A DNA stretch of 64,000 nucleotides from a virus, in the IMG/VR virus record IMGVR_UViG_3300032334_001128, positions 1-64,000 of that record; one strand, written 5' to 3'. Position 1 is the first letter of the stretch; every line of letters starts with the position of its first letter. A model generated the notes under the pieces. It ran no database searches and was not told the origin of the DNA. It worked only from the letters and a program-made list of their open reading frames with translations. This document shows positions 2,561 through 33,346 of this stretch, piece after piece. The position numbers and the translations under genes are program-made.

Positions 2561-2651
2561 GTATCTATTGTATAAGAAACACAGCTTTCGCGCTATAGCT
2601 AGCTCCGAAAAAAGGATCAGAAAAAAAATTAATTATTTATAGCATTTCGAT

Positions 2652-2680
2652 TTGACTTCCAACGAAACTTCCTATAAGTT
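2652..2680 (+). promoter_or_regulatory. sigmaA-type promoter of the MoxR operon
   Basis: TTGACT-17-TAAGTT after an AT-rich tract. Confidence 0.55.
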
Positions 2681-2718
2681 AGTCCTATCAACATCCAAAC
2701 TAACGAAAGGTAATTCTT

Positions 2719-3198
2719 ATGGATGCTCAACAAACGCTGGCTGGTCAGGCTCTCTACTTAGAGATGTCTAATGGTGCCAAAGGCGATACTGCTCAAATCT
2801 TGCTCGTTCCAATGGGCATCATTGATGGCAAAGTGTCGCAACCTGTAATGCTAAGAAGAACAGTAAATCAATGGTCGCCAAGAGCACAATGGCAACTCGA
2901 CAAAATCCAAACAAACCCTGTTCCAACAATCCCGAGTGGAACTACTGCTACTTTCGGAACAATGTCTGATGAAGAAGCACAGCAACTTTCATTAGAAGTT
3001 CTTTCACCAATCAGAAATCAACTTGCTTATCTGATGGAAAAGGGTTGGACACTTAGAAATAATAAGCCCCTTGTTGTAGAAGTTTCACAGCAAGACTTGA
3101 TTGATGTAAGCAAGTGGTCAAGTCCACAAGGTCTGCTTCGCCGAGTTCTTAGAACTCGTAAAGAAGCAGGTTTCCCCGAAGAACTATTTACCAAGTAA
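2719..3198 (+). CDS. hypothetical protein, first gene of the MoxR/VWA cluster
   Basis: AACGAAAGG RBS; 159 aa. Confidence 0.75.
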   Translation: MDAQQTLAGQALYLEMSNGAKGDTAQILLVPMGIIDGKVSQPVMLRRTVNQWSPRAQWQLDKIQTNPVPTIPSGTTATFGTMSDEEAQQLSLEVLSPIRNQLAYLMEKGWTLRNNKPLVVEVSQQDLIDVSKWSSPQGLLRRVLRTRKEAGFPEELFTK

Positions 3199-3223
3199 GC
3201 CCGAGAGATAGGACATAAATAAA

Positions 3224-4249
3224 ATGGCTACATACCCCCCTACAAAAACAACAGTAGAAGATTTGGATGCTCTAAAAGCAATCTCGATCGATTTACCAAC
3301 TGCTCTAATCGCATACGCCGAACAAGCAGTATCATCAAAGAGCAAGTCAGTTCTTGATGGTCTAACAAACAAGGCTAGTGCCTTGACCAAAAGGGCTTCG
3401 GCTGGAACTATCCCTACAATGAAAAAGGTTCGTATCGTGGATGCCCCGAGTATTGATGGACAAGAGAGTTATGCTCGCCCTAATGGTGAGTTGTATTACT
3501 CTCGTAAATGGTCAGAGATGCCTGATGTCGAAGTCTTGCGTAAAGGTCGTGCCAATGGACACTATGCGTTGCTGTATGGTGCCCCTGGGTGTGGAAAGAC
3601 AGCATTGGTCGAAGCAAGTTTCGGGGATGAACTTTATACAATTCTCGGTTCTGGCGATACCGAACTTTCAGACTTCATTGGTGGCTATGTCCAAACTCCG
3701 AGTGGTGGCTTCGAGTGGGTTGATGGTGCTCTAATCAAGTCTGCCGAGCAAGGTAAAGTTCTGCTCATTGACGAGATTGGATTGATTGACCCGAAAGTTC
3801 TTTCTGCTCTCTATGGATTGATGGATGGTCGTAAAGAAATCACCATCACTCAAAATCCCGAGCGTGGAACTGTAAAGGCGAAAGATGGGTTCTATGTCGT
3901 TGGTGCGACAAACCCTAATGCCCCTGGGGTTCGCCTTTCAGAAGCCTTGCTATCTCGTTGCTTGCTACAAGTCGAACTGACTACTGATTGGTCGCTTGCT
4001 AAGAAGTTGGGCGTTCCAATGTTGGCAATCACAGCAAGTCAGAACTTGGCGAAGAAACAACTTTCAGGTGAAGTATCTTGGTCGCCACAGTTCCGAGAGT
4101 TGCTTGCGTTCCGAGAAATCGAAAGTGTCTATGGAACTGATTGGGCGATTGCGAACTTGCTTGCTTGCTCACCTGAAATGGACAGACCTGTTGTGGCTGA
4201 TGTCTTTACCCGAGTATTCGGAAAAGATTGTCGCCCTGCCAAAATCTAG
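3224..4249 (+). CDS. MoxR/CbbQ/NorQ-family AAA+ ATPase
   Basis: Walker A GAPGCGKT, Walker B LLIDE, GATNP sensor, LSEALLSR; adjacent VWA gene. Confidence 0.9.
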   Translation: MATYPPTKTTVEDLDALKAISIDLPTALIAYAEQAVSSKSKSVLDGLTNKASALTKRASAGTIPTMKKVRIVDAPSIDGQESYARPNGELYYSRKWSEMPDVEVLRKGRANGHYALLYGAPGCGKTALVEASFGDELYTILGSGDTELSDFIGGYVQTPSGGFEWVDGALIKSAEQGKVLLIDEIGLIDPKVLSALYGLMDGRKEITITQNPERGTVKAKDGFYVVGATNPNAPGVRLSEALLSRCLLQVELTTDWSLAKKLGVPMLAITASQNLAKKQLSGEVSWSPQFRELLAFREIESVYGTDWAIANLLACSPEMDRPVVADVFTRVFGKDCRPAKI

Positions 4250-4331
4250 GTAGTCCTATCCCTAGATCAGATTGGTAGTCGAGCTAGTGAAAATTAGCTC
4301 GGCTACTGATCCTGAAACTAGCTGATAGAAC

Positions 4332-4360
4332 TTGCTATAAAACTAAATCACCATTACAAT
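4332..4360 (+). promoter_or_regulatory. sigmaA-type promoter
   Basis: TTGCTA-17-TACAAT. Confidence 0.6.
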
Positions 4361-4387
4361 CGAAGTAAGTCAAACGAAAGGTAAAAA

Positions 4388-6232
4388 ATGGCTCACTATG
4401 GAAATGTAGAAATCACAGCAACAACTCCGAAAGAGTGGCTTGCTGTTGGTGCGAAACTCGGGCAGTTGGTCAATGAGTGGTCAGGTCGTAATGACCTTGC
4501 TGTTCTGATTGCTCACGAAATCGCTCACCCGAACCCTGCTCTATACAACCCGACAAGTTCGGAAATCGAAGTAAGTATTCCTATGGCATTTGGCATTGGA
4601 ACTACCCCTGCCAATCTTGGCGATTTATCAGACAAAGCAATTCAGTATGAGAACGCTAAGGCGATTGGCGTTATCTATCACGAGAGTTGCCACGCTAGGT
4701 TCTCTCGATACTCACTCGAAGATGCGAGCAAGGCTCTAACTGAAAACGAGTTCGGTGCTCTACACCTGCTCGAAGAAAGTCGTATCGAACATTGGGGCAT
4801 TACTGCTATTCCAAGTCATAGAGAGTTCCTAAGAAGTTCTGCTCTCGAAATTGTATTGGCAGAGATTGATACAGCAGTAGAGAAGATGTCTGCTATTCGT
4901 GCTGGTGCTTACCTATCAGGTCTGACCCTTGCTCGAATTGATGCTGGCGTTCTTGATGCTATGGATTTAGTTTCAGTATCAGAGTTCTTGGATGGATTAC
5001 TTGGTGCTGAAAATGTTGCTCGCTTGCGTGAAGTGTGGGTCGAGTTTCAGGCTCACGCTGACCACGCTAACGCCGAACCCCTTTACGCCTTAGCTCGAAA
5101 GTGGGAAAGTATCGTGAAAGAACTTTCCGAACAGGCAGGTCAAGAACCCGAAAATGGTCAGGATGGATGTAAGTTCCCTATTGGTGGCGAAGATGGTGAG
5201 AGTGGCGAAAAGGGCAAGGGTCGTGGAACAGGTCGATCGATTTCAGAGATGTTGGATGCTCTAACTGATGATGCTGATAACACTATGCTCTCGTCAAGAC
5301 AGAGTTTAGATAGACAGCAGACAGCCGAAGATTGGGATAAAGAAGTCAAGGCTCGTCAGAGTTCGGCAAAGAGAAATGCTGACCACCAAAAGGTAGCAAA
5401 GCAGATTATCGAACAGAACAAAAGGGGAAATGAACCTAGTTGCGATACCAACTCAAAGTTCTTGGGTGCGAGAAAACCAACTGCTATCGAAAGGTCGTCT
5501 GCTGTTCTCGTTGCGAAGTTGCTAGAAAAGGCAAAGTATCGTGAGAGAGATGTTGTCGTTCACAATCAAGTTCTTCCTGCTGGAAAACTTAGAACTCGAA
5601 CAATCGTTCAGGCACAGGCTCTCAAAGCAAAAGGTATTCACAATCCAATCGAGATGTGGAAGAACAAAACTCGCAAGCAAACTGACGAGCCAACTTTATC
5701 TATCGGCGTGATGGTGGACATTTCTGGCTCAATGGGTTCTGCTATGGAACCAATGGCAACGACAGCGTGGGTTCTATCCGAAGCAGGTCGGCGAGTTCAG
5801 GCGAGAACATCAATGGTCTATTTCGGCTCAGATGTATTCACCACACTCAAAGCAGGGCAACACTTGGAAGAAGTGCTGACCTACTCGGCTAATGACTACA
5901 CCGAGAAGTTCGACAAAGCGTTTCAGGCAACGGATGGGATGCTCAACTTACTAAACGGAAGTGGGGCGAGATTGCTCGTTGTTGTATCGGATGGACATTA
6001 CACTCCCGAAGAAACTAAAAAGGCGAGAGAGTGGATTGCCGAGTGTAAGCGTAGTGGCGTGGCTGTTCTATGGATTGGCTACGATAAATCCGTTGGTGGT
6101 GCCGAGTTCATTATCAAGGGAACGGATGCTGAATTAGTTTCTGTATCTAATGATGTTGCCGAAGCAAGTAGGGCTATCGGCGAGATGGCGAGTAGAGTTC
6201 TGTCCAAGATGGGCGAGCGCAACTCCTACTAG
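4388..6232 (+). CDS. VWA-domain protein (CobT/NorD-like) with N-terminal HExxH motif
   Basis: MIDAS DISGS and VVSDG; YHESCHARFS...LLEESRIE; MoxR neighbour. Confidence 0.85.
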   Translation: MAHYGNVEITATTPKEWLAVGAKLGQLVNEWSGRNDLAVLIAHEIAHPNPALYNPTSSEIEVSIPMAFGIGTTPANLGDLSDKAIQYENAKAIGVIYHESCHARFSRYSLEDASKALTENEFGALHLLEESRIEHWGITAIPSHREFLRSSALEIVLAEIDTAVEKMSAIRAGAYLSGLTLARIDAGVLDAMDLVSVSEFLDGLLGAENVARLREVWVEFQAHADHANAEPLYALARKWESIVKELSEQAGQEPENGQDGCKFPIGGEDGESGEKGKGRGTGRSISEMLDALTDDADNTMLSSRQSLDRQQTAEDWDKEVKARQSSAKRNADHQKVAKQIIEQNKRGNEPSCDTNSKFLGARKPTAIERSSAVLVAKLLEKAKYRERDVVVHNQVLPAGKLRTRTIVQAQALKAKGIHNPIEMWKNKTRKQTDEPTLSIGVMVDISGSMGSAMEPMATTAWVLSEAGRRVQARTSMVYFGSDVFTTLKAGQHLEEVLTYSANDYTEKFDKAFQATDGMLNLLNGSGARLLVVVSDGHYTPEETKKAREWIAECKRSGVAVLWIGYDKSVGGAEFIIKGTDAELVSVSNDVAEASRAIGEMASRVLSKMGERNSY

Positions 6233-6247
6233 CCGACAACAAGAGCT

Positions 6248-6310
6248 TCCCTATCGGGTGTCTGACTTCCCTTTCCTTTCGTTCATCAGACACTCGGTAG
6301 GGATTTCTTT
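6248..6310 (+). terminator. long-stem intrinsic terminator with anti-RBS loop
   Basis: 18-bp stem TCCCTATCGGGTGTCTGA/TCAGACACTCGGTAGGGA, loop CTTCCCTTTCCTTTCGTTCA, T-rich tail. Confidence 0.75.
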
Positions 6311-6645
6311 TATCGGCGAGCCTATGATCTCGGCGAGACGTAGCTGTAATAACGGCGAGCCCTACCCGGGTACTAAATTTATAACCGCGTGACCTAGGTG
6401 ATCCTGGGATCATAGCTGCATCAGTGTAACGGGGAATCTAACTTCTAACGGAGTGATGTTTGCAGCTGGTGAGATCTGTCCTTACATGTGCTTCGCGACT
6501 TCTAATGAACCGCTCGTGAAAAGATCTGATGAGAGATGAGAGGATCAGAGGATCAGAGGAGAGGATGGGAACTTCTAACGGAGAGCTCATCAGAAGATAT
6601 GCTGCCAGGTAGTACGTGGGAACCGGTGTGATAAGAAGCTGCCCT

Positions 6646-6683
6646 GCTCAGGGTGCTCAGGGTGCTCAGGGTCCTCAGGGTCC
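6646..6683. repeat. 9-bp tandem repeat (GCTCAGGGT)x3 plus CCTCAGGGT
   Basis: seen directly; would read AQG-AQG-AQG-PQG in one frame. Confidence 0.8.
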
Positions 6684-6916
6684 AACCGGTGGAACCGAAG
6701 TCTGACGAAGCTCATCGGAAGTTTACCTGGATCAGAAGCTGCCTGGTCGAACCTGGATCTGATCAGCTTCGTTCGAAGATTGCGGCCGGTGTATGTGGAT
6801 CTAATGCTGGCTGAGCTCCGAAAAATTAATTAAAAAATTTCGTGAAATGTGCTTGCTAATGTCGTGTCGTGTGTAATAATAGATACACCAAGCACACTTC
6901 TACGAAAGGAAACCCT

Positions 6917-7264
6917 ATGTGCGACAACCCTGAACACGACCACGAGAACTTTGACCCTATTGAACTAATCAGGAATACTGACGATGGGCAAGAGATTCTG
7001 GCTATCCTAGTGGCGAGCAACCTTGCCCTACTTGCTGACCACGCTGAAAAAGAATTTGTATCTCCACCAATGTCGCAAATGGCAGAAATCCTTGTTGCTG
7101 TTGCTGAACGAATTGGAAATCAAGAAGGCATTGACCTTGCCAAGTTCATCAAGATTACCATTGACGATGCTGTTGCTAACAATTGGGAAGTAGCCGAAGA
7201 TGATGGCGACACTACAACTTGGGTTCATAAAGCAGATAAAGATGATTTAGGCGAGGGTGCGTAA
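6917..7264 (+). CDS. hypothetical protein
   Basis: ACGAAAGGAAA RBS places the start at 6917. Confidence 0.75.
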   Translation: MCDNPEHDHENFDPIELIRNTDDGQEILAILVASNLALLADHAEKEFVSPPMSQMAEILVAVAERIGNQEGIDLAKFIKITIDDAVANNWEVAEDDGDTTTWVHKADKDDLGEGA

Positions 7265-7420
7265 ATGACCCTTGCTGAATTCTGCGATGAGAAGATTACC
7301 GAGCTGGAAGAGATGGCAATTGTTGCTATGGAAGAAGGCGATGATGACTTGGCGAGCTACTTGGAAGGATCTATTGATGCCTACTCCATTATCAAAAACA
7401 AGTTGGGCGAGTTGGCGTAG
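7265..7420 (+). CDS. small acidic protein (MTLAEFCDEK..., 51 aa)
   Basis: ATG directly after the upstream stop; not in ORF track. Confidence 0.65.
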   Translation: MTLAEFCDEKITELEEMAIVAMEEGDDDLASYLEGSIDAYSIIKNKLGELA

Positions 7421-7442
7421 CTCGGCGAGCACGATCTATGAC

Positions 7443-7471
7443 TTGCGACAAATCTAAATAACCACTAAACT
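7443..7471 (+). promoter_or_regulatory. sigmaA-type promoter
   Basis: TTGCGA-17-TAAACT. Confidence 0.65.
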
Positions 7472-7499
7472 CTTACTATGGCTAACGAAAGGAAATCAA

Positions 7500-8159
7500 A
7501 TGCCAAACTGGGTCTATAACTATGTTACTGTTACTGGCAAGACCGAAGAACTAAAATCGTTCATCACCAAATCAACTGAACCACGCCCCTATGAGAACGG
7601 CTTGTCGGAAAACCGAGACTTCTCGTTCTGGAACTTTGTGGCTCCACCCGAAGACAGACTGGATGAGTATTTCGGTATTCACGGATGGGTTGACGGCAAG
7701 CAACAAGGCGATACTGCTGTGAACTGGTATAACTGGAACAACGAAAACTGGAATACCAAGTGGGATGCTTGCGACCAGTATGTAGCCGAGATGGATGAAC
7801 TTGGTGATGGAACGGCGAGAATTAGTATTTCATACAATACGGCGTGGAGTATTCCTGAACCTGTGATGCGTGCGATGGTTGAGCAACATCCTGAACTTCG
7901 CTTTGAGTTCTCTTGCGAAGAAGAACAAGGATGGGGTGCTGACTTTGTTGGCGAGAACGGCGAGTTGGAAGAAACTAAATCTTGGGACATCCCGAACTCT
8001 CACGCTGACTATGTTGAGAGAGATAATGAAGACGGATGCCTTTGTAGTCACTTTGACGATGAAGACGAATGGTATAGTGACTGTCCTAAAGACACCGACC
8101 CTAACCGAGTTATCTCTATTGCCGAGATGGACAAAGACTTTAGGAACTTCGCCGAATAA
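7500..8159 (+). CDS. DUF1281/YubB ferredoxin-like domain protein
   Basis: MPNWVYN...WYNWNNENWNTKWD...YNTAWSIP signature. Confidence 0.75.
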   Translation: MPNWVYNYVTVTGKTEELKSFITKSTEPRPYENGLSENRDFSFWNFVAPPEDRLDEYFGIHGWVDGKQQGDTAVNWYNWNNENWNTKWDACDQYVAEMDELGDGTARISISYNTAWSIPEPVMRAMVEQHPELRFEFSCEEEQGWGADFVGENGELEETKSWDIPNSHADYVERDNEDGCLCSHFDDEDEWYSDCPKDTDPNRVISIAEMDKDFRNFAE

Positions 8160-8181
8160 ACTTGTGGTGAAAGCCACCTGA

Positions 8182-8226
8182 CTAGAACCCCCCTACACTT
8201 CCTTCCTTTCCTGTAGGGGGGTTTAG
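8182..8226 (+). terminator. terminator hairpin with anti-RBS loop
   Basis: AACCCCCCTACA/TGTAGGGGGGTT stem, loop CTTCCTTCCTTTCC. Confidence 0.65.
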
Positions 8227-8358
8227 TCTATCCATAGATCATTGACGGTTAGCCTGGGCGAGCTCAGCTCAGATTAGCTCCGGACGTGGCTTGCCGGTGA
8301 TCAGAATCTTAGCTGCGAAATTTGGATCTAAACACGCCATAAATAGTTTCGTTAGAAG

Positions 8359-8388
8359 TTGCGAAATGTCGTATCAAAGCATTATACT
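8359..8388 (+). promoter_or_regulatory. sigmaA-type promoter
   Basis: TTGCGA-18-TATACT, with ACACGCC upstream. Confidence 0.65.
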
Positions 8389-8416
8389 TTTAGTGTCTAA
8401 ACGAAAGGAAATCCAA

Positions 8417-8923
8417 ATGGGACTAGACATGTATCTATACGCTCGCAAGTATGTATCGGGCGTGGACTATTCACGAGCAAATGGTGAAGTAGTATCAACA
8501 CCAAATCCAATGTTCACTTCTGTAATCAACGCTATTGGACTTACTACTGACGAACTAAGTGAAGATTTTCCGTCTGCCACTATTTCGGTCAAAGTTGGTT
8601 ATTGGCGTAAGGATAATCAAATCCATAGTTGGTTTGTAAATAATGTTCAGGGTGGCGAAGATAACTGCGAAGAGTTTCATGTAAGCAGAGAGCAGTTGTT
8701 AGAGTTGCGAGATGTCTGCCGAAAGGTTGTTGCCGATAACTCACTTGCCGAAGAACTACTACCACCAGCCGAAGGATTTTTCTTCGGGTCATACGAGTAT
8801 GACGAGTGGTATTTTGAAGGTATCAAGGCGACTATCGCTATCTTGGATAGGATTTTGACTAACCCTAAGTTTGAAGATACGGGCATGTTCAGTTGGGACT
8901 TTTACTACCAGAGCAGTTGGTAG
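8417..8923 (+). CDS. conserved phage protein (MGLDMY...YWRK family)
   Basis: AACGAAAGGAAA RBS; GYWRKDNQIHSWF and GFFFGSYEYDEWY motifs. Confidence 0.8.
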   Translation: MGLDMYLYARKYVSGVDYSRANGEVVSTPNPMFTSVINAIGLTTDELSEDFPSATISVKVGYWRKDNQIHSWFVNNVQGGEDNCEEFHVSREQLLELRDVCRKVVADNSLAEELLPPAEGFFFGSYEYDEWYFEGIKATIAILDRILTNPKFEDTGMFSWDFYYQSSW

Positions 8924-9058
8924 AAAGTTGGCGTGGTGCCGGTGGAGAAATCTGCCGGCTCACCGGCCAGCAATCAGATCGATCGAAGACACGCGGCGAG
9001 CTGTTGCAATGAAATAATAAATCTTGTAAGATGGAGCTACGTTCGAGAAAGGAACAAA

Positions 9059-9241
9059 ATGAAACTAACCAAAGCTGAACACGATTTCCTAATGAAGCTC
9101 ATGGCTCAGACATGGGCATACGCCGACAGACACGAAGATGCTGTCGAACGTCAGGAGCTAGCTATGTCTATTATGGACAAGCTCGAAGAGAACCTAATCA
9201 GTAACGGATACGCTGACCAAATCGGCGAGCTAGGGGACTAG
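9059..9241 (+). CDS. hypothetical protein
   Basis: GAAAGGAA RBS before ATG 9059. Confidence 0.65.
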   Translation: MKLTKAEHDFLMKLMAQTWAYADRHEDAVERQELAMSIMDKLEENLISNGYADQIGELGD

Positions 9242-9328
9242 TGAAACGGATCGGGTTGTGGCGTGTTGTAGAAAATGTCACCCCGATTTGGTAGAGTTGT
9301 ATCATAACAACTAGTGAAAGGACTAGCC

Positions 9329-9550
9329 GTGAATAAAAAAGTTAGAAAGTTCTACTTAGAAAAAGTTGGTATGCCAAGAAGTTTGGTTTACCGACTAATG
9401 TTCTACAAAGTATTTCCAAAGGCAAGGGGCAAGGCTTTATTTGATGCCCTTGTAAACATCTTCCTTTACCGATACTACGAGAAGGTTGGCGAGCAACAAT
9501 TCTTACTAGAAACAAGTATTGTGAAGCACCCAGCAGGAAAGAGAAAGTAA
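9329..9550 (+). CDS. basic hypothetical protein
   Basis: GAAAGGA RBS before GTG 9329; coupled to the next gene. Confidence 0.6.
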   Translation: MNKKVRKFYLEKVGMPRSLVYRLMFYKVFPKARGKALFDALVNIFLYRYYEKVGEQQFLLETSIVKHPAGKRK

Positions 9551-9837
9551 TGAGTGGCGTGATTGACCCTTGCCACTATTGTGGCGAGAGCACGGCTTTC
9601 GGGTCTGGCAAGTTTGTGAACCGACTACCGGTAGAAGACGGCTGGGGTTGTGCCGAGTGTTCTGGCTTTGCTTGTGATAAGTGCTACAAGCAGATTTATT
9701 TAGACACCGATGTCCGTGATAAAGACGGATACTTTTATCACGCTACATGCTTACCGGTTGGCGAGCATGTTGGATTCAATGAAGACCTTTATGATGAGAG
9801 TTGTTGGTGCGAACTACATGAAACGGAGAGTGAGTAA
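9550..9837 (+). CDS. Cys-rich zinc-finger-like protein
   Basis: multiple CxxC motifs; TAATG overlap. Confidence 0.7.
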   Translation: MSGVIDPCHYCGESTAFGSGKFVNRLPVEDGWGCAECSGFACDKCYKQIYLDTDVRDKDGYFYHATCLPVGEHVGFNEDLYDESCWCELHETESE

Positions 9838-10031
9838 TGGCCGAGCTAATCCACTTTGTTCTTGCTGTTGATCTTGAAACCGGCGAGGTGATCCTAGATG
9901 ACGATACCCTGATCGCGCGATTCCATGATGGAGCTGTATGGGATACCGAAGCTAATGAGTGGCGAGCTGAGACGGAAGCTGAGTACGATAGATCAGTTGC
10001 GAAAATCAAACCGATACTTGACATTCGATAA
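9837..10031 (+). CDS. hypothetical protein
   Basis: TAATG coupling. Confidence 0.65.
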   Translation: MAELIHFVLAVDLETGEVILDDDTLIARFHDGAVWDTEANEWRAETEAEYDRSVAKIKPILDIR

Positions 10032-25183: not shown

Positions 25184-25205
25184 CTTATTCTTGGAAAGGA
25201 TACTT

Positions 25206-25409: not shown

Positions 25410-25421
25410 ACAAATCTAGTT
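25396..25421 (+). promoter_or_regulatory. sigmaR/sigmaH-type promoter
   Basis: GGAAT-N18-GTT; nearly identical to the minus-strand promoter near 11943-11968. Confidence 0.7.
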
Positions 25422-25443
25422 CTATTTACTGAAAGGAAAATAA

Positions 25444-25605: not shown

Positions 25606-25607
25606 GA

Positions 25608-25772
25608 GTGAGAGCAAGAGTGAAGCTAACACCTGAACAGATCACTGAGTTGGATAAGTTCCAGACACGGAAGCTCTATGAGTTTGTCTATCTAGGGATG
25701 GCCGCCGGTATTATCCCCTTTGTCCCTAACCTAAGACTTAGCCGGATGGTGAGGAAGCTAAAACAGATCTAA
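25608..25772 (+). CDS. small hypothetical protein
   Basis: GTG start after GGAG; 54 aa. Confidence 0.45.
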   Translation: MRARVKLTPEQITELDKFQTRKLYEFVYLGMAAGIIPFVPNLRLSRMVRKLKQI

Positions 25773-25848
25773 ACTCGCCTAAGTAAATGTTGCGAAATGT
25801 CTGTTGCTCAGTGTAAACTGAAACACCAACTAGGAAAAGGAGTGTCTT

Positions 25849-26085
25849 ATGACTCACGCTGTTTATCTAAGAGACGATGTATTTGGAGATGTAATCGAAG
25901 CTTTATGGTTCTGTTCGGATCCTTGTGCTAGAACTCACCCTGAGTATCAGGGCTGGAACGGTTGCCAAGAAAACTACTCGCAACCAAACTGCCAGAACGA
26001 AATGTGTAAAGAAGCCTTGAGTTGGTATTGCGAAGATGAGCAAATCTGGTATATTGGAGATACACCACAAGAGAAAGCGAACTAA
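25849..26085 (+). CDS. Cys-containing hypothetical protein
   Basis: promoter TTGCGA-18-TAAACT at 25790-25819; AAAGGAG RBS. Confidence 0.7.
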   Translation: MTHAVYLRDDVFGDVIEALWFCSDPCARTHPEYQGWNGCQENYSQPNCQNEMCKEALSWYCEDEQIWYIGDTPQEKAN

Positions 26086-26246
26086 TGGAAATCATTGACC
26101 AAATCCTAAAAAACTTAGTCAAGTCTGGCAGAGTTGATAAAGAAGATAACGCTTATGCGTATCTTGCTGGAATGGCTTTCGCTGTTCTTACAGAAGAACA
26201 GCAACAAGAAATCTTAGCGATTACTGAAAAGGAGTATGAGCATTGA
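26085..26246 (+). CDS. small hypothetical protein
   Basis: TAATG coupling; 53 aa. Confidence 0.6.
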   Translation: MEIIDQILKNLVKSGRVDKEDNAYAYLAGMAFAVLTEEQQQEILAITEKEYEH

Positions 26247-26428
26247 GCAAGTATGTAAAACACCTAACTAATGACGAACTGCTAGAACGCTTGGCAGATG
26301 AGTTAGCAACTATGCACAAGGAAACCTACATTGAGTTAGGTTCTTGGGAAACTGCCAGAGAGTTAGTAGAGCGTTTCTACGAAGTAAATACCGAAGTGAC
26401 TGTTGGCAGAAAAAAGGAACAGAGATGA
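26243..26428 (+). CDS. hypothetical protein
   Basis: TTG start overlapping the upstream stop; AAGGAG RBS. Confidence 0.6.
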   Translation: MSKYVKHLTNDELLERLADELATMHKETYIELGSWETARELVERFYEVNTEVTVGRKKEQR

Positions 26429-26574
26429 ATAAACTAAACCACATTCTATCTATGCTCTCCGGTGAAAGTCAGATCGATGTGTTTCTTCTTGCCGAAGATG
26501 AAGCTTTGGTTGAGATGATTACGAGTGGAACTGATTACGCTGAACTGCTAGACTATCTAAACGATAATTACTAG
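26425..26574 (+). CDS. hypothetical protein
   Basis: ATGA overlap; AAAGGAA RBS. Confidence 0.65.
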   Translation: MNKLNHILSMLSGESQIDVFLLAEDEALVEMITSGTDYAELLDYLNDNY

Positions 26575-26585
26575 GAAAGGAAATT

Positions 26586-26792
26586 ATGTTTAGGAAATAC
26601 TATGTCTATATTTTTGATTGCGTTCATTGTGCCAAGTTCTACGGAGAGCAATCTCTAACTAGAACTGGTGAATTGCTTTGTCCGTCTTGTGGAGCAGAGC
26701 AGTGGAAAGAAAGCGATTATGTTGAGAAGATGAGAGTGAAGCGTAAGCCTAAACCCTTTGACCCCTTGATTGCTTTTGCCGATTACATCTAA
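26586..26792 (+). CDS. zinc-ribbon protein
   Basis: CVHC and CPSC motifs; GGAAAGGAAA RBS. Confidence 0.7.
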   Translation: MFRKYYVYIFDCVHCAKFYGEQSLTRTGELLCPSCGAEQWKESDYVEKMRVKRKPKPFDPLIAFADYI

Positions 26793-27017
26793 TCATTCTT
26801 CACAAAGCTTCCCCGGTGATCACTAGATCGCCGGGGATCTTTATACCTGGATCAGATCAGATCCGGATCAGTTGATCAAGCCGGATCGGATCTTGCCTGG
26901 CCGGTGCAGCTAGATCCGGAATGATCTCTCCGGAAGGATCTCCCGAAACACCTTACGAAATCTTGACAAGACACGCCTAACTGATAAACTGGAACTACCA
27001 TTCGGGAAAGGAATGAA

Positions 27018-27185
27018 ATGAACAAGGCGAATAAGGCAAGGCGTAATGCCGAAGCGTTAGCGTTAGAGATTATCTTGCGTGAGCGTTCACGCTCTAACGC
27101 TTCTGGCGTTCACGCCAACAAGGCAGACAAGCGAGCAAGAACTCGCAAGGCTAGACTAAACAAGGCGATAAGAGAGTGGAACTAA
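27018..27185 (+). CDS. small Arg/Lys-rich basic protein
   Basis: GGAAAGGAA RBS; RSRSNASGVHANKADKRARTR. Confidence 0.6.
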   Translation: MNKANKARRNAEALALEIILRERSRSNASGVHANKADKRARTRKARLNKAIREWN

Positions 27186-27304
27186 TGACTAAAAGAGAAC
27201 TAACACCTGAGCAAGCTAAGGCCAAGCGTGCTGATGAGATTGCTTGCCGAGTATCTCTAAGCTTGTTTGTAATCTTTATGCTTATCCAAGTATTTACTAG
27301 ATAA
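27185..27304 (+). CDS. 39-aa membrane peptide
   Basis: TAATG coupling; C-terminal hydrophobic helix. Confidence 0.5.
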   Translation: MTKRELTPEQAKAKRADEIACRVSLSLFVIFMLIQVFTR

Positions 27305-27333
27305 AAACGGATCCAAATTTATTTCTAATTTCG

Positions 27334-27359
27334 GGAATAAATCTGTTAGAGTTTGAGTT
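27334..27359 (+). promoter_or_regulatory. sigmaR/sigmaH-type promoter
   Basis: GGAAT-N18-GTT. Confidence 0.65.
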
Positions 27360-27381
27360 GTTATTACTGAAAGGAATAAAA

Positions 27382-27906
27382 ATGACCAACTATGAAAAGT
27401 CTTATGACGAAGCCAAAACTAAGAAGTTCACCAAGCCTGAACTTTGGAGTGAAATCTTACCTAACCTATGGCTAGGTGGAACTGACGATAATGACCGAGT
27501 TGGTGATAAGCATTGCGAGTTTGATAGACAAGACATCTCTATCAAGCCACGACACTTTGATAGTGTCTATACCTTTTATGCTCACGCTAATCCTGTTGAT
27601 TGGCTAGTGAAAGAGTTTAGATACGGCTACTTTGATAGTGCTGATACTGACTTTGATAAGTCAGCGTTTATGCGTATCGCTTACAACATCTTTACTGATT
27701 GGAAGTCTGGCGATAAAGTGTTGGTGCGTTGCCAAGCAGGTCTAAATAGGTCTGGCTTACTTATGGCGATAGTGCTAATGCTTGACGGCTACGAAATCCA
27801 AGAAGCGATTGACCTTATGCGTGAGAAGCGACACGAACTAGTGCTGTTCAACCCTAACTTTGTTGAGTGGTTGAGAAACCTAGACATTACCAACCCTAGT
27901 TGGTAG
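27382..27906 (+). CDS. dual-specificity protein phosphatase (Cx5R)
   Basis: VLVRCQAGLNRSG P-loop; ILPNLWLGG. Confidence 0.85.
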   Translation: MTNYEKSYDEAKTKKFTKPELWSEILPNLWLGGTDDNDRVGDKHCEFDRQDISIKPRHFDSVYTFYAHANPVDWLVKEFRYGYFDSADTDFDKSAFMRIAYNIFTDWKSGDKVLVRCQAGLNRSGLLMAIVLMLDGYEIQEAIDLMREKRHELVLFNPNFVEWLRNLDITNPSW

Positions 27907-28067
27907 TGTCTAGGGTTGAGGCCGAAGCTTGGAGATCACTAGATAAGATCACACCGGGCCGGCCGGGGGATCCAATTGGATCTACAAACACGCTAATAAA
28001 TAGAGTTGCGAATTATTTGTTTGTGTGGTTAGATTGACTTATTCCCGATTAGAAAAGGAGAAATAAA

Positions 28068-28298
28068 ATGGGAAAGAAGAAACTAGATACTTGGGCGTGG
28101 TTTGTTGCTCAGTATGAAAGTCAGGGCTACAAGTCTCTAAATCAGTTCGCAATCGCAACGGGCTTACAGAAGTCTAGCCTGAGTAGGTATTTCCACAATC
28201 AGCGACACATTCCGTCAAACACACTTGCTACGCTCTGCCGAGAGTTGCGTGTCTCACCTTACGAGTTGCTAACTGCTATTGGTGAGAAAGTTTCATAA
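28068..28298 (+). CDS. XRE-family HTH protein
   Basis: SLNQFAIATGLQKSSLSRYF...PSxxTLxxLCxxL; promoter TTGCGA-18-TAGATT at 28006-28035. Confidence 0.75.
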   Translation: MGKKKLDTWAWFVAQYESQGYKSLNQFAIATGLQKSSLSRYFHNQRHIPSNTLATLCRELRVSPYELLTAIGEKVS

Positions 28299-28382
28299 GC
28301 CAATCTCATAGAAAGAGATAACACCTGAGCAAGTGTTCTAAACTGCTCACTTACCGATAGACTTACAACATAAGGAGTTCTA

Positions 28383-28487
28383 ATGAAAAAGAAGCTTGCT
28401 AAAAGTTTGCTAAGTCTTAGTGGTGCTCTAATGGGTATTGCTCATAGATTATCTTGGACTGCTCATAACCTAAACACTAAAAAATAA
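28383..28487 (+). CDS. 34-aa basic peptide
   Basis: AAGGAG RBS. Confidence 0.45.
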   Translation: MKKKLAKSLLSLSGALMGIAHRLSWTAHNLNTKK

Positions 28488-28500
28488 AGGAACAGATCTA

Positions 28501-28629
28501 ATGACTGATAAAAATAAATCTAAGCTAGCTAAAAAAGAAAGCTGGTCTTGTATGCTGTGTGGAGCTACTACAACGGATCCAACACAAGCTCTAATCACTT
28601 ATTTCCACTGGCCTTGCCCTAAAAGGTAA
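28501..28629 (+). CDS. 42-aa Cys/His peptide
   Basis: AAAGGAA RBS; CMLC...HWPC. Confidence 0.5.
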   Translation: MTDKNKSKLAKKESWSCMLCGATTTDPTQALITYFHWPCPKR

Positions 28630-28712
28630 TAAAAGAAACACCGAATAAATACTTGTGTATTTGTTCCCTTGTGGTATAAACTGGACTTATCTCTCGGAAA
28701 GGAGATTAGGAA

Positions 28713-28916
28713 ATGAAGTTCTTTGTTCGTAGATTACTTGCTGGTGTTGTTATCGTTCCACTTACGGCAGTTGCTTATGTTCTTGTCTGTGCTTTGCTTA
28801 TCGGTCTTGGTGCTGGGCAGAATGAATCGGTTGCTGGGTATTTCGGTATTGGTCTATGGTTTGGTGTAGGCTTGACCTTAGTGTTTGCTTTTGACGCTCT
28901 TAGGAAGGTGAAGTAA
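28713..28916 (+). CDS. two-TM membrane protein
   Basis: promoter TTGTGT-18-TAAACT at 28653-28682; hydrophobic helices. Confidence 0.7.
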   Translation: MKFFVRRLLAGVVIVPLTAVAYVLVCALLIGLGAGQNESVAGYFGIGLWFGVGLTLVFAFDALRKVK

Positions 28917-29101
28917 TGAAGTTCTTGTTGATGTTCTTGGCTGTCTGGTCTATTGTTGCTGGTATTTATTATGGTGAAGTAGAAGGACACTTTGTATCCT
29001 TGATGATTGGTCTATCTCTTGGTGCTTTACTGATGTTTGGTGCTTTGGTTCTTGCGATTAGTGAGTTGCCACGATTCATTAGGCGTAGGAATAGACGCTA
29101 A
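28916..29101 (+). CDS. two-TM membrane protein with basic tail
   Basis: TAATG coupling; terminator at 29114-29145. Confidence 0.7.
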   Translation: MKFLLMFLAVWSIVAGIYYGEVEGHFVSLMIGLSLGALLMFGALVLAISELPRFIRRRNRR

Positions 29102-29162
29102 CCTGTTTTACTAAACACCCCTAGGAAACTAGGGGTGTTTTTTATAGTGGTATCCTTGACTT

Positions 29163-29315
29163 ATGATCGAAATAATTATTTATATTCTTTTAGCTATAAC
29201 TGGGCTGTTTATTTTTTACATAGCTGCCCTGCTACCTATAGCTAAGCTCATCTACACATACGGAGAGTCTAAAGACGATTGGTATTCGCATTATGAGGAA
29301 GAAGCATTAGATTGA
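29163..29315 (+). CDS. small membrane protein
   Basis: 50 aa with an N-terminal TM helix. Confidence 0.5.
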   Translation: MIEIIIYILLAITGLFIFYIAALLPIAKLIYTYGESKDDWYSHYEEEALD

Positions 29316-29475
29316 TGGAGATTGCTGGTTTAGTATTGATCCTTGTATTCCTGGCCGGATTGACTGCCGGGATCTCATATTTGATCTTGTTCGTGTATGC
29401 TAATCGAGTGATCCGGAATAATGATCCGGATCCACAAACTCTACTCGGAGTAGTATCTCCGAAGAAAGAAGACTA

Positions 29476-29637
29476 ATGTCTAGTTGGCTTATTCGTTTGC
29501 GTGATCTAGTTTGGCCGGCGATCATCTCTGTGATCCTGGTATCTGCTTCTGTGATCGTTGCGTTCTTTGCTCCACCTATCGCCGTAGTTCTAGGACTCGG
29601 TGGTATCTCATTCGCTCTATTAGCTCAGCGTGCTTAG
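29476..29637 (+). CDS. two-TM membrane peptide (possible holin-like)
   Basis: 53 aa, two hydrophobic segments, upstream of a PG-binding protein. Confidence 0.55.
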   Translation: MSSWLIRLRDLVWPAIISVILVSASVIVAFFAPPIAVVLGLGGISFALLAQRA

Positions 29638-29658
29638 CTGAGAGATTGGTAATAAATT

Positions 29659-30225
29659 ATGTCAAGTAAGAAATCAAATGGATCTGATGATCTAGATCCG
29701 ATCGTAGATCAAGATCAGGATCTAGAAGTTGATCAGATTGTAGATCCGGAGCCGATCGTTGATCAGGATCCGATCGTAGATCCGGTTGTTGATCAGGATC
29801 CGGTTGTTGATCAGGTTGTAGATCCGATCGTAGATCCGGAGCCGATCGTTGTAGCCCCGATCATTGAGATCACTGATGGTGGAATGATCCCGATCCCTTC
29901 TCGCCCGATCGTTCCTCAGGAAGTAACTCCGGCTGGCCCGGCTGTTGTTGGGTTTGGAGTCTTTGATGAAGTGTTCCTGGACAAGTGTATCTACAAGAAT
30001 GTATACAATCGTAAGTCGCTAACGATCCACCACTTACAACGGAGATTGTATGAGCTAGGGTACATCGTAGCTCTAAAGGACAAGGATGGGTATTACGGGG
30101 ATCTAACTAGATCAGCTGTAGCTCAGTTCCAGGCAGATCGTAATCTAGCTGGGGATGGCCTTATGACTGCTGAAGCCTTTGAGCTCATCTTTGCTAACGA
30201 TCCGAATGTGAAAGTCGTTCTATAG
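29659..30225 (+). CDS. peptidoglycan-binding domain protein with a GATC-encoded D/P/V/Q low-complexity N-terminus
   Basis: IHHLQRRLYELGY...DGYYGDLTRSAVAQFQ...DGLM PG_binding_1 pattern. Confidence 0.75.
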   Translation: MSSKKSNGSDDLDPIVDQDQDLEVDQIVDPEPIVDQDPIVDPVVDQDPVVDQVVDPIVDPEPIVVAPIIEITDGGMIPIPSRPIVPQEVTPAGPAVVGFGVFDEVFLDKCIYKNVYNRKSLTIHHLQRRLYELGYIVALKDKDGYYGDLTRSAVAQFQADRNLAGDGLMTAEAFELIFANDPNVKVVL

Positions 30226-30324
30226 ATCGTTGTTCGCTGTTGAGAGATGCCAATCTGTTATACGGGTTGGCATTTCTCGTTATTATCCTGTAATGTTGGG
30301 AAAAGACAAGACAAAGGAGAAATT

Positions 30325-30903
30325 ATGTCTAATTATGTAAAGCAGAACCACGAACTACCTAGTGAAGTGCTAGATAGTGCCAAATCTATTCCATCTCGGG
30401 ATAAGCAGACTAGAAACGCTTATGTAAAGGCTCTAAGAGAGCAAGGGTGGACATTTGAGAGCATTAGCGTAGCATTTGGTATGACTAGGGAGAGAGTTCG
30501 TCAAATTGCCATTATGGAGAGCAATACGGACATTGTGAAGGACTATCCACTACCTTTACCACCATTGGCTCCCGAAGTAGTGAAAGTGAAGCGTGAGCTC
30601 ATCTTGCCTAGCGACAAGGTGCTTAGTCGCTTACTAGAACTACAACCACTAGCACAACAGGTGCGTTCCAATAGCAAGAAGTATCGTAGTGAAGCAGAAG
30701 AATACTCACACTTACTAAATCACGCTATCGAAGTAGAAGGTGTATCAACTTATCGGTTAGCCAAACTACTAGGTATCACTCACGGGGCTATTCGTTTCCG
30801 TCTTGCTAGATACGGCTATAAGCCTGAAACGGCAGGTAAGAGTTCTGTTTACTCTGCTATTCTGGATAAGAATAGAGTGGGTATCACTACCACCATTGAG
30901 TAA
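30325..30903 (+). CDS. double-HTH DNA-binding protein, possible terminase small subunit
   Basis: sigma70-r4-like WTFESISVAFGMTRERVRQI and a second HTH STYRLAKLLGITHGAIRFRL; immediately upstream of TerL. Confidence 0.6.
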   Translation: MSNYVKQNHELPSEVLDSAKSIPSRDKQTRNAYVKALREQGWTFESISVAFGMTRERVRQIAIMESNTDIVKDYPLPLPPLAPEVVKVKRELILPSDKVLSRLLELQPLAQQVRSNSKKYRSEAEEYSHLLNHAIEVEGVSTYRLAKLLGITHGAIRFRLARYGYKPETAGKSSVYSAILDKNRVGITTTIE

Positions 30904-30915
30904 TTAGGAGTGTAA

Positions 30916-32325
30916 GTGGCTAAATCACTTATGGAACAGATCGCTTTACTACCACCTGAAGAACAAGCAAGAGTATTAGCTGGAATGGATCCGGAGACTC
31001 TTATGTGGGACTGGTCTGCTTGGGGTAGACCTGAGCAACAAGCTCCCGTAGGTGATTGGAACATCTGGGCTTACATCGCTGGTCGTGGTGCTGGTAAGAC
31101 TAGGACTGCTGCTGAGTGGGTTCGTGAAGAAGCGAAATACACTACAACAGGACAACGACGCTTTGCTTTGGTAGCAAGAACAGCAGCCGATGTACGAGAT
31201 GTGATCGTAGAAGGTGAGTCAGGAATTATGAATGTGACTCCCCCTAGTGAAAGGCCACTATACGAACCATCTAAGCGTAGGTTGACCTGGCCTAACGGAA
31301 ATGTCGCTACTTGCTTTACAGCAGACGAACCAGACTCTCTCCGTGGACCTCAGTTCACTCACGCCTGGGGAGATGAGATTGCTGCCTGGCGACAGACACC
31401 AGACGCAGCTGGTATGACTGCTTTTGATAACTTGCGTGTTGGAACTCGTCTTGGTGCTACTCCTAAGATTATGGTCACTACCACACCGAAGCGTGTTCCA
31501 CTTTTGTATAAGTTGATCGAAGAAGCGAAGACAGGTCGAGTAGTGATCACTCGTGGATCTACTATGGATAACTCGGGGAACCTATCTGTTGCTTATCTAG
31601 ACGCTATTACTGGTGTTTATGCTGGAACTCGCCTAGCTCAGCAAGAAATCTATGGTGAGATGCTAGACAGCGTAGAAGGTGCTTTGTGGACAGAAGAACT
31701 GATTGAGCAACATAGACAAGGTGCTATGCCATTAGGGACTCCACTAAGAGTGATCGGTGTTGACCCTAGCGTTGCTGAGAACCCTAGAGATGAATGTGGG
31801 ATCGTTGTATGTGCTTCTACCTCTGAGCGTGATCTGTATAAGCGACACGCTTGGGTATTAGAAGACGCTAGCGTTCACGGATCTCCGGATGTTTGGGCTA
31901 ACAAGGTTGTTGAGATGGCTCGTAAGTGGGGATGTCCTGTAGTAGCTGAAGTAAACCAAGGTGGAGCATTGGTAAAGAATGCGATCCACACTATCGATCC
32001 AAACATTACTGTATTAGAAGTTCATTCTAAGTATGGTAAAGCTCTTAGAGCTGAACCTGTTACATTGGCTTATGAGCAGGGTAGAGTTCACCATTTAGGT
32101 TATCTCGGATCCTTAGAGAGCCAGATGTATTCCTGGATCCCTGGAGAAGGTAAATCTCCCGATCGTGTTGACGCATTAGTTCACGCTCTCACTGCTCTAA
32201 TGATCAAGCCTCCGTCTGGCTTTACTGGGGGAAAGATTACAGCTCGATCCGTGGCCGGAAGAAAGATCCCTAATGTTCGTGGTAATGACGCAACTGGATC
32301 TAGGGGAATCTTTAGAGTTAGATAA
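30916..32325 (+). CDS. terL: terminase large subunit
   Basis: AGRGAGKT Walker A, SLRGPQ, WGDE Walker B, GVDP RNase H-like nuclease, SPDRVDA. Confidence 0.93.
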   Translation: MAKSLMEQIALLPPEEQARVLAGMDPETLMWDWSAWGRPEQQAPVGDWNIWAYIAGRGAGKTRTAAEWVREEAKYTTTGQRRFALVARTAADVRDVIVEGESGIMNVTPPSERPLYEPSKRRLTWPNGNVATCFTADEPDSLRGPQFTHAWGDEIAAWRQTPDAAGMTAFDNLRVGTRLGATPKIMVTTTPKRVPLLYKLIEEAKTGRVVITRGSTMDNSGNLSVAYLDAITGVYAGTRLAQQEIYGEMLDSVEGALWTEELIEQHRQGAMPLGTPLRVIGVDPSVAENPRDECGIVVCASTSERDLYKRHAWVLEDASVHGSPDVWANKVVEMARKWGCPVVAEVNQGGALVKNAIHTIDPNITVLEVHSKYGKALRAEPVTLAYEQGRVHHLGYLGSLESQMYSWIPGEGKSPDRVDALVHALTALMIKPPSGFTGGKITARSVAGRKIPNVRGNDATGSRGIFRVR

Positions 32326-32332
32326 TTATTTG

Positions 32333-32358
32333 GGAATAAATCCCTTGCTTTGTCGGTT
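32333..32358 (+). promoter_or_regulatory. sigmaR/sigmaH-type promoter
   Basis: GGAAT-N18-GTT. Confidence 0.65.
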
Positions 32359-32401
32359 GTATGTAGTAGAGTGTAATCAACTACTACGAAAGGCTCTAAC
32401 T

Positions 32402-32527
32402 ATGGACGCTTCTAACCTTTACTATGGCGACGAAACCCTAGACGATTGTACCCGTGAAGAATACGACGCTTGGGTAAATCGTCCTGAAGTTTGGGACGAC
32501 AACTGGGACAAGAAGGAAACTGACTAA
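32402..32527 (+). CDS. 41-aa acidic peptide
   Basis: ACGAAAGG RBS before ATG 32402. Confidence 0.6.
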   Translation: MDASNLYYGDETLDDCTREEYDAWVNRPEVWDDNWDKKETD

Positions 32528-32751
32528 TGGCAACTACTAACCCTTACACCAACTACTCGGCCGAAGCTTTGGGCTATGCTCTGGAAGCAGCAAATCGCAA
32601 GGTATCACTTGGCGACACTAGCGAAGACTTGCTCACTATGATTGAGCAGATGGGCGAAGCTTTAGAACAGAAGCAGGGGACGGATAGGTGCCAACACGGC
32701 GTCTATCTTTATGGTGATGTGTCCCCGTCTTGTTGGGAATGTGAAGCCTAG
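32527..32751 (+). CDS. hypothetical protein
   Basis: TAATG coupling; terminator at 32762-32800. Confidence 0.7.
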   Translation: MATTNPYTNYSAEALGYALEAANRKVSLGDTSEDLLTMIEQMGEALEQKQGTDRCQHGVYLYGDVSPSCWECEA

Positions 32752-32868
32752 TAATCTCTTAATAAATAATCCCTTATCAAGCTGGTAAGGGATTATTTAT
32801 TATGCTGATCGGTTGCTTCTATGATCATTACCAGGCTAAAAATAGATCCAAAATAAATAAAAAATCTG

Positions 32869-32894
32869 GGAATAAATACCTTGCCTGATTGGTT
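32869..32894 (+). promoter_or_regulatory. sigmaR/sigmaH-type promoter
   Basis: GGAAT-N18-GTT. Confidence 0.65.
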
Positions 32895-32936
32895 ATTTAT
32901 AGTAAGATGAAATCACCACTCCGGAAAGGAACCCTA

Positions 32937-33284
32937 ATGAACCTAGAACACGCACAACTTTTTGAGTTTATTTGTGATGACGCTAGTTATGGTGGCATTG
33001 GCTACTGGGCTAGTTTGGCTGATAATAACCCTGAGAAGCAGACCTACTCTGTGGAAGTAAGACCTGAATACAGAGATGATGAAATCAAGGACAAGGTGCT
33101 AACTTACCAAGACCTTTATGACGCTTGCGAGAAGTTAGCCACTGGTAAGGTGTCTGTAAATAGCAACACCAAGAAAGTCTGCCAACAGATTATTCTTGAC
33201 CCTACTGATGATGTAGATTATGACGCAGAAGACGCAGACTGTATTGTCCAAGTTGCTATGTTCGGTGAAATCCTATTTGGCTAA
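32937..33284 (+). CDS. conserved phage hypothetical protein
   Basis: GGAAAGGAA RBS; GIGYWA...DAEDADCIVQVAMFGEILFG; terminator at 33300-33340. Confidence 0.75.
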   Translation: MNLEHAQLFEFICDDASYGGIGYWASLADNNPEKQTYSVEVRPEYRDDEIKDKVLTYQDLYDACEKLATGKVSVNSNTKKVCQQIILDPTDDVDYDAEDADCIVQVAMFGEILFG

Positions 33285-33346
33285 TCACTAATCTCTAATA
33301 AGTAATCCCTTGCTGAGCTAGCAGGGGATTATTTATTTATACGGAT

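Follow-up and report, generated by a model that had tools for sequence, protein, structure and literature searches.

Avoidance of palindromes and restriction sites is a well-known phage strategy against type II systems. Here we describe a locus, region A, in which such avoidance is confined to a block with sharp edges and, for some words, set at the level of single open reading frames (ORFs); it lies in the first 64 kb (64,000 nucleotides, hereafter the window) of the 126,293-bp virus record IMGVR_UViG_3300032334_001128, and positions are those of the window unless genome positions are named. The portal protein of this virus is 65% identical to that of Microbacterium phage Pumpernickel and 74% identical to that of the uncultured Actinomycetia phage DSL-LC01, whose predicted host is actinobacterial (PMC10611076). 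In the described phages T5 and BF23, restriction of types I and II acts only on sites within the first-step-transfer (FST) repeat, which carries a repeat-rich non-coding stretch at its inner border (PMC10644984; bioRxiv 10.1101/866236). In Autographiviridae the early-injected region is reported to set sensitivity to type I restriction (PMC12455610), and in the T4-type phages RB49 and phi1 a unit of early promoter plus stem-loop (PeSL) is described as a site of recombination (PMC2839356).

Region A resembles each of these systems in part. As in T5 and BF23, small host-takeover genes would lie at a genome end in a long direct terminal repeat, which among the relatives is seen only in Pumpernickel, and a repeat-rich non-coding stretch of ~1 kb stands at the inner border of the block, where Pumpernickel has short-unit repeats too. 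The T5-like property that sites are harmful only inside the segment is mirrored by a compositional footprint alone (observed/expected ratio (O/E) 0.06-0.31 inside, normal outside except for GCGC and CGCG), and this inside-only footprint recurs in the related stretches L005-L008, L009/L012, L039, L043 and L072. The phage family and host phylum are unrelated to those of T5, however, the block is three times longer (31.7 kb against the ~10-kb T5 repeat), and a two-step entry like that of T5 and BF23 would be hypothetical here. With phage site avoidance in general, region A shares purged words that are type II sites and a purged set that shifts quickly among related phages, but the avoidance here forms one sharp-edged block, with four words avoided only in single ORFs and three of them enriched 100 bp away. 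The likeness to PeSLs lies in many small non-essential early genes, a repeated terminator hairpin with a strong promoter and a gene order shuffled between close relatives, and a unit of the PeSL type (stem-loop and early promoter flanking small ORFs) recurs ~40 times here; the abstract of the PeSL work draws no link to restriction-type words, whereas here GATC, AGCT and CCGG run between hairpin and promoter. The Autographiviridae are alike in that only sites in the first-entering DNA count and differ in being podoviruses with a single type I motif. We lean, with moderate confidence, towards reading region A as a T5-FST-like early block shaped by restriction enzymes, in which the unit selected is the early transcription unit.

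A sharp-edged block with two layers of avoidance

The block and its contents were delimited as follows.
2630-34367, plus strand: region A, a one-directional block of ~75 small ORFs (31.7 kb)

Eight palindromes (ACGT, ATAT, CATG, GTAC, TGCA, TTAA, CGCG and GCGC; layer 1) are depleted throughout region A, in its genes as well as its spacers. Of the 11 tetramers lowest in the block, ten are palindromes, among them TTAA (O/E 0.06), ACGT (0.12), GCGC (0.12), ATAT (0.13), GTAC (0.18), CATG (0.22), TGCA (0.25), CGCG (0.25) and TATA (0.31), and in the genome outside region A only GCGC and CGCG are low. Both borders are precise to a few bases: on the left, the final outside layer-1 site is a TTAA at 2629 and the next lies at 6217; on the right, there is none between 33441 and a CATG at 34368, after which such sites come at 21-38 per kb. 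A first-pass annotation of this DNA had assigned the feature to 2640-33300, and the block itself is borne out, with its limits at 2630-34367. The same annotation had listed ACGT among the words missing from the cassette genes; ACGT is absent from the spacers as well and thus belongs to layer 1.

About 40 region-A ORFs each stand behind their own T-run terminator hairpin, spacer, promoter and GAAAGGAAA ribosome-binding site, and at this scale a second layer appears. Genes were compared with synonymous-codon shuffles within each gene, which keep protein and codon usage, and spacers with dinucleotide-preserving shuffles (1000 trials per named spacer). Class 1 comprises 41 ORFs (14.6 kb) stripped of nearly every short type II target: GATC, AGCT, CCGG and GGCC together occur eight times where synonymous shuffles give 164 (AGCT 3/67.5, GATC 3/50, GGCC 0/30 and CCGG 2/17, seen/expected), alongside TTAA (0/54.5) and ACGT (0/32). 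Asymmetric pairs are low in both orientations (GAGG/CCTC 3/46 and 2/22; GCGG/CCGC 6/28.5 and 2/15), as are the interrupted palindromes GGNCC (0/12.6), GCNGC (0/9) and CCNGG (2/14.7), and also GANTC and GTNAC, while CTNAG, AGNCT, CANTG and CTAG are not depleted. The longer genes fall 3 to 8 standard deviations short of palindromes (z -3 to -8). Depletion in both orientations and a word list that reads like a restriction catalogue point to double-stranded DNA recognised by restriction systems; the earlier view that the purged words are type II targets thus extends to asymmetric ones, on both strands. Composition or codon usage as the cause is rejected by the two kinds of shuffle, and selection at the RNA level is unlikely, given a depleted set made of palindromes and of asymmetric words low in both orientations.

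The following genes carry the contrast between the two classes.
2719-6232, plus strand: operon of a small protein, a MoxR AAA+ ATPase and a VWA protein (Pfam AAA_5, 1.8e-19; weak VWA_CoxE)
7500-8159, plus strand: class-1 cassette gene, no GATC, AGCT, CCGG or ACGT; z = -5.2
12160-12678, plus strand: class-1 cassette gene, no GATC, AGCT, CCGG or ACGT
13611-14093, plus strand: class-1 gene, type IV prepilin peptidase-like (Pfam Peptidase_A24, 9e-9), no GATC, AGCT, CCGG or ACGT
27382-27906, plus strand: class-1 dual-specificity phosphatase gene (Pfam DSPc, 2.3e-11)
23856-24416, plus strand: class-2 NlpC/P60 lipoprotein peptidase (Pfam NLPC_P60, 2e-21)
29659-30225, plus strand: class-2 peptidoglycan-binding protein (Pfam PG_binding_1, 2e-11)
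30916-32325, plus strand: large terminase subunit, terL (Pfam Terminase_6N and Terminase_6C)

All three genes of the 2719-6232 operon are class 1, nearly free of palindromes except TCGA and CTAG (z = -5.6, -6.9 and -8.4). Our recount agrees with the first-pass annotation that its first gene (2719-3198) and the genes at 7500-8159, 12160-12678 and 13611-14093 hold no GATC, AGCT, CCGG or ACGT and that the MoxR gene (3224-4249) holds a single GATC; the phosphatase gene likewise has no GATC, AGCT, CCGG or GGCC, nor does its ortholog in the closest lineage. ORFs free of these last four words (four-word sites) make up 34 of the 44 promoter-proximal ORFs, those directly after a spacer, against seven of the 31 promoter-distal ones (Fisher p=4e-6), as expected from the earlier proposal that site-free genes are those read first. 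Promoter-distal ORFs, late-type genes and the spacers retain the words: terL avoids layer-1 words and holds 33 four-word sites, the P60 gene 21 (its ortholog 18), and the peptidoglycan-binding gene 45, of which 31 are GATC and many fall within a D-P-I-V-D-Q-type repeat that was read by eye. The partition that had been called strict is therefore real as avoidance and enrichment and is not strict, a substantial minority of genuine genes in the block being rich in these words. The first-pass proposal that late-type genes hold the sites is upheld. The site-rich class includes many small ORFs; spurious calls were considered for these and rejected, as substitutions against the closest relative fall at codon position 3 more than 1 and at 1 more than 2.

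Three spacers illustrate the other side of the layout.
20883-20992, no strand assigned: palindrome-packed spacer from a terminator to the next promoter (7 GATC, 6 AGCT, 3 CCGG)
26806-26945, no strand assigned: palindrome-packed spacer (13 GATC, 2 AGCT, 7 CCGG), with a terminator-like stem (26810-26837) at its start
16150-16300, plus strand: typical spacer and promoter, with the AGAGATCTCT palindrome, CCGG/GATC/AGCT filler, GGATCTAAAACACGCC, an A/T tract and a GGGAATAA-type promoter

The counts of about 16 and about 22 GATC, AGCT and CCGG sites given earlier for the first two spacers are exact; shuffles yield 3.8±1.7 (at most 10 in the 1000 trials) and 5.6±1.8 (at most 12). The enrichment persists under the composition-matched null across all region-A spacers (8,138 bp), which hold 262 such sites against 89±8 (z=21), so that GATC, AGCT and CCGG stand at about three times expectation, with GGCC there at the level of the shuffles. 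The sites form runs of 40-110 bp between hairpin and promoter and crowd 20-100 bp upstream of the -35 hexamer, at ~63 per kb, compared with ~4 per kb in the promoter and 5' leader. Most lie in variable filler (for example CCGGATC, CCGGCCGG and GATCAGATCA), whereas AGAGATCTCT, a 10-bp palindrome, occurs in six exact copies, each of them in a region-A spacer, with no other copy in the 126 kb.

Promoters were located by recurring consensus sequences seen in the spacers; a generic sigma-70 promoter scan gave no more matches than in shuffles. Fourteen are of the form TTGC(C/G)A-N18-TAAACT and ten of the form GGGAATAA-N~17-GTT (14630-32869). The presence of two forms hints at two sigma factors, or at two classes of timing, in the early block; GGATCTAAA(A)CACGCC and an A/T tract stand ahead of both. 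The second form resembles the promoters of actinobacterial extracytoplasmic function (ECF) sigma factors. A 684-bp non-coding stretch inside the block (6233-6916) has short tandem repeats (TGCTCAGGG, four times, and GATCAGAG, three times) and a local cluster of palindromes avoided elsewhere in the block.

Conservation and turnover among relatives

Both layers and both edges recur in the closest lineage (L005-L008 and L086/87), whose terL is 95% identical in protein and ~78% in DNA. Orthologs there keep their class, with no sites in either phage for class 1 and 11/9, 20/18 and 41/30 sites for class 2, and the ortholog of the 12160-12678 gene (87% identical protein) also has no GATC, AGCT, CCGG or ACGT. 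Between the two lineages ~38% of the codons for conserved residues have changed, and a passive relic of a word-banning ancestor is counted out by this synonymous turnover with ORF class retained. Site counts of orthologous spacers correlate (rho 0.86), while single spacer sites are no better conserved in the closest lineage than any other 4-mer (36% vs 35%); thus it is density, not position, that is maintained. Orthologous runs differ by insertions, the closest-lineage ortholog of spacer 26806-26945 lacking ~60 bp of a GATC run, and cassette order is partly different.

The layout reaches further: in L089-L092, with a MoxR protein only 66-69% identical, genes hold 0-0.3 GATC per kb and spacers 8-11 per kb, and CGCG and GCGC are tolerated. 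The expectation that related phages keep palindrome-rich spacers thus holds for the closest lineage and L089-L092 and fails for L009 and L012, to which we return below. Other relatives differ in the words and in their extent. L039, L072 and L043 are devoid of GATC, AGCT, CCGG, GGCC, CGCG and GCGC throughout the locus, and of ACGT, CATG, GTAC, TGCA and TTAA only upstream of terL; L068, L071, L074 and L081 avoid no words; and the 31 MoxR-VWA orthologs compared vary widely in which words they avoid, as would be expected of fast-changing host restriction repertoires. DSL-LC01 (L001-L003, OQ999401) has no TTAA and no ATAT in its 129,469 bp, with its regions alike.

The early-block reading and its alternatives

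The right border bears on where the genome ends. Region A closes with ~1.1 kb of non-coding DNA that includes two arrays, followed by an element shared with relatives.
33346-33806, no strand assigned: non-coding GATC-unit array (TGATCAT, TGATC; Tandem Repeats Finder)
33813-34188, no strand assigned: non-coding AGCTC-unit array (AGCTCATAGCTC, ~29 copies; Tandem Repeats Finder)
34404-34433, plus strand: conserved element GTTAAGGTATCACTTTTACGTACAGTACAG, which aligns with L006, L039 and the sequence after the Pumpernickel repeat end at 19,963

The 500-bp bins from 33001 to 34000 hold 44 GATC. The AGCTC-unit array is found at the same place in the closest lineage, and in L039, where GATC and AGCT are altogether lacking, TATGTCT-type repeats take the place of the arrays. 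The first 19,963 bp of Pumpernickel, a block of small plus-strand genes, are exactly repeated at its right end; short-unit repeats precede that repeat end and the conserved element GTTAAGGT.TCA.TTTTACG..CAGTACA comes after it. The shared element past the arrays leads us to predict a repeat end or physical terminus near 34,375, within about ten bases of where palindromes resume, and region A is probably contained in a long terminal repeat. Contigs of many relatives (for example L010, L016-L023, L028 and L030) stop 1-2.5 kb downstream of terL, and their assemblies seem to break at the arrays or the predicted repeat end. The units of the AGCTC array (TAGCTCAGCTGGGTAGCTC) look like the 5' D-arm consensus of tRNA, which may be chance.

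On the reading that we favour, region A would be the block of early, host-takeover genes in a large siphovirus that infects freshwater Actinobacteria, and its DNA would face the restriction enzymes of the host before the phage has set up any protection of its own. Restriction selection would have purged the eight layer-1 palindromes from the whole block and, in layer 2, essentially every 4-5-bp type II target from the first ORF after each early promoter. For GATC, AGCT, CCGG and GGCC, the protected unit would then be promoter, ribosome-binding site and first gene rather than the DNA molecule, and cutting (or binding) in a spacer would be harmless since the leading repeat copy need only express its genes. 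Layer 2 is not avoidance by the whole molecule, because GATC, AGCT and CCGG reach threefold expectation 100 bp away, and do so across deep divergence; the argument made at first pass, that plain whole-molecule avoidance does not account for site-free genes adjoining site-packed spacers, is upheld. If this reading is true, restriction enzymes leave their mark on a phage genome at two scales, that of the first-exposed block and, more surprisingly, that of the single early transcription unit, and a cut or a bound protein can be harmless 100 bp from a gene and harmful inside it, which makes sense only if the task of this DNA is expression and not inheritance. The locus would also offer a testable entry into how large phages of abundant freshwater Actinobacteria survive restriction-rich hosts, where the physical genome ends lie and which of the ~75 small genes act first, and purged word lists could reveal the restriction repertoires of uncultured hosts from the phage side.

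Several observations weigh against this reading. The T5 FST shows no general avoidance of 4-mer palindromes (O/E 0.4-1.3; GCGC 3.7) and no site-packed spacers, and the imprint in region A is far stronger; avoidance as a general property of terminal repeats was considered and is seen neither there nor in the Pumpernickel repeat. A restriction site put into FST DNA renders T5 sensitive, and because of this, harmless cutting of leading DNA is without precedent. Terminal repeat, physical ends and entry order are drawn from one distant relative, and the homologs of the first genes in the Pumpernickel repeat (genome 123.8-126.3 kb and window 1-749) lie outside region A and are not palindrome-poor; no match could be established between the left border of region A and the left end of that repeat. 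L009 and L012, with terL 89-90% identical, have layer 1 only, with neither layer-2 avoidance nor spacer enrichment. Should current hosts lack enzymes that cut GATC, AGCT or CCGG, the clearing of these words from first ORFs would require a different agent. Finally, gene calls follow our own rule of an ORF with a ribosome-binding site. As for hallmarks of T5 entry, DnaA boxes, as found in the T5 injection stop signal, are fewer than chance, form no cluster and are absent from the arrays, and 17 region-A proteins scanned against Pfam and PHROGs matched no family named for T5 A1, A2 or dmp, in scans that were not aimed at them.

The alternative that fares best, possible though in our judgement improbable, is that the spacer runs are mainly docking arrays for a DNA-binding protein, be it a phage or host regulator or a nucleoid protein, that controls or insulates the early promoters. 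GATC, AGCT and CCGG would persist there as required parts of the motifs, with the bound protein shielding the sites and the genes showing ordinary avoidance. The crowding of sites just upstream of the -35 hexamer and their scarcity from promoter to 5' leader are what such arrays would give, as are GGATCTAAA(A)CACGCC before both promoter classes and the six spacer-only copies of AGAGATCTCT, and a helix-turn-helix protein with a sigma region-4 fold, encoded at 30247-30903, is a candidate for the binding protein. In L027 (positions 1-10000, IMGVR_UViG_3300042483_000433), a different and strictly conserved module, GAAATTGAAATT-(CGCGCTCCGCGC or AGCTCCGCTC)-AAACAGAATAA, occupies the same place ahead of every early promoter; it is an operator-like repeat made of words that L027 genes avoid. 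Yet only ~10-25% of spacer GATC falls in recurring motifs, single sites are conserved at background level, and shielding gives no account of sites within terL, the P60 and peptidoglycan-binding genes and promoter-distal ORFs. Spacer words look partly like docking-site motifs (GGATCTAAA; AGAGATCTCT) and partly like runs whose length changes through insertions and deletions; docking sites and tolerated cutting are compatible with each other.

A second alternative, which the first-pass annotation had raised and which we regard as doubtful, treats the ~260 spacer and ~100 array sites as decoys. They would soak up the few molecules of restriction enzyme or methyltransferase that a very small host cell contains, and cuts would fall between the self-contained units of a leading repeat copy that can be spared; the early genes would meanwhile disarm the host. 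In keeping with this, sites are confined to places where a cut spares the promoter and first gene, their density is kept by turnover rather than conserved position, and late DNA has GATC and AGCT at 1.5-1.9 times expectation. GATC and AGCT arrays stand at the predicted repeat end, and relatives that ban both words genome-wide are without them. For T5, moreover, Davison argues that the phage loses one of its terminal repeats in any case. We know of no experimental precedent for restriction enzymes being titrated by sites on the very DNA that is entering; the idea presupposes a terminal repeat and the repair or replacement of the cut copy, and has against it the harm done by sites in T5 FST DNA. 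A related and likewise unlikely extension of the early-block reading holds that the leading copy is expendable as such, with restriction-proof expression units set between runs of cut sites on which enzymes are spent or soaked up and the trailing copy restoring the genome; were it true, it would be a restriction defence written in DNA layout, one that works without an anti-restriction protein.

We consider it very improbable that the spacer sites are a functionless by-product, that is, slippage-born low-complexity runs next to genes whose depletion is left over from a word-banning ancestor or from cassette exchange with such phages. Runs do lengthen and shorten through insertions and deletions, tandem repeats make up the terminal arrays, many relatives ban GATC/AGCT/CCGG-type words genome-wide, and cassette order varies between close relatives. 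Against this, class-1 orthologs are site-free and class-2 orthologs site-rich in both phages despite the change of ~38% of synonymous positions, the layout persists at the distance of L089-L092, no cassette with a protein more than 83% identical was found in a word-banning phage, and late genes here lie above expectation for GATC and AGCT.

The first-pass annotation had also proposed that a DNA modification or a binding protein decorates the spacers and late genes; a binding protein is possible in view of the position of the sites and the recurring motifs described above, and modification is weakened. The 126-kb genome gave no match to PF01555, PF02086, PF00145, PF01702 or PF00303, with positive controls, and no N6/N4, Dam-type or C5 methyltransferase, TGT/DpdA or thymidylate-synthase-type enzyme was found in it, nor any homolog of the DSL-LC01 methyltransferases; a search for MT-A70 (PF05063) found no match in the controls either and hence was uninformative. 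That virion DNA is modified at GATC, AGCT and CCGG by a host or unrecognised phage enzyme, which protects the DNA and hinders RNA polymerase so that first ORFs are kept clear, would account for words kept in spacers, distal ORFs and late genes but not in first ORFs, but we hold it very improbable, since the searches just described, in a record with an estimated completeness of 94%, turned up no gene for a methyltransferase or for base modification and since modification of three or four sites gives no account of the ~15 other restriction-type words missing from the first ORFs.

The record and regions beyond the window

An endolysin-like ORF of 533 aa spans the record junction (window 1-749 and genome 125,441-126,293), and the contig is therefore a closed or permuted (collapsed) circle, though it is listed as linear. 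Beyond the window, genome positions 100,001-104,000 hold 54 GTAC in 4 kb and lack nearly all other 4-bp palindromes; judged by the gene order of DSL-LC01, our guess is a repeat-rich region of collagen-like fibre genes. At genome 120,500-120,660, iteron-like copies of AACCATG and its complement CATGGTT lie in non-coding DNA ahead of the first plus-strand gene of the early block and could mark an origin or control site. IMG/VR contains 461 stretches with a gene for a related large terminase and 91 with one for a related MoxR ATPase; lake metagenomes are the source of nearly all of them.

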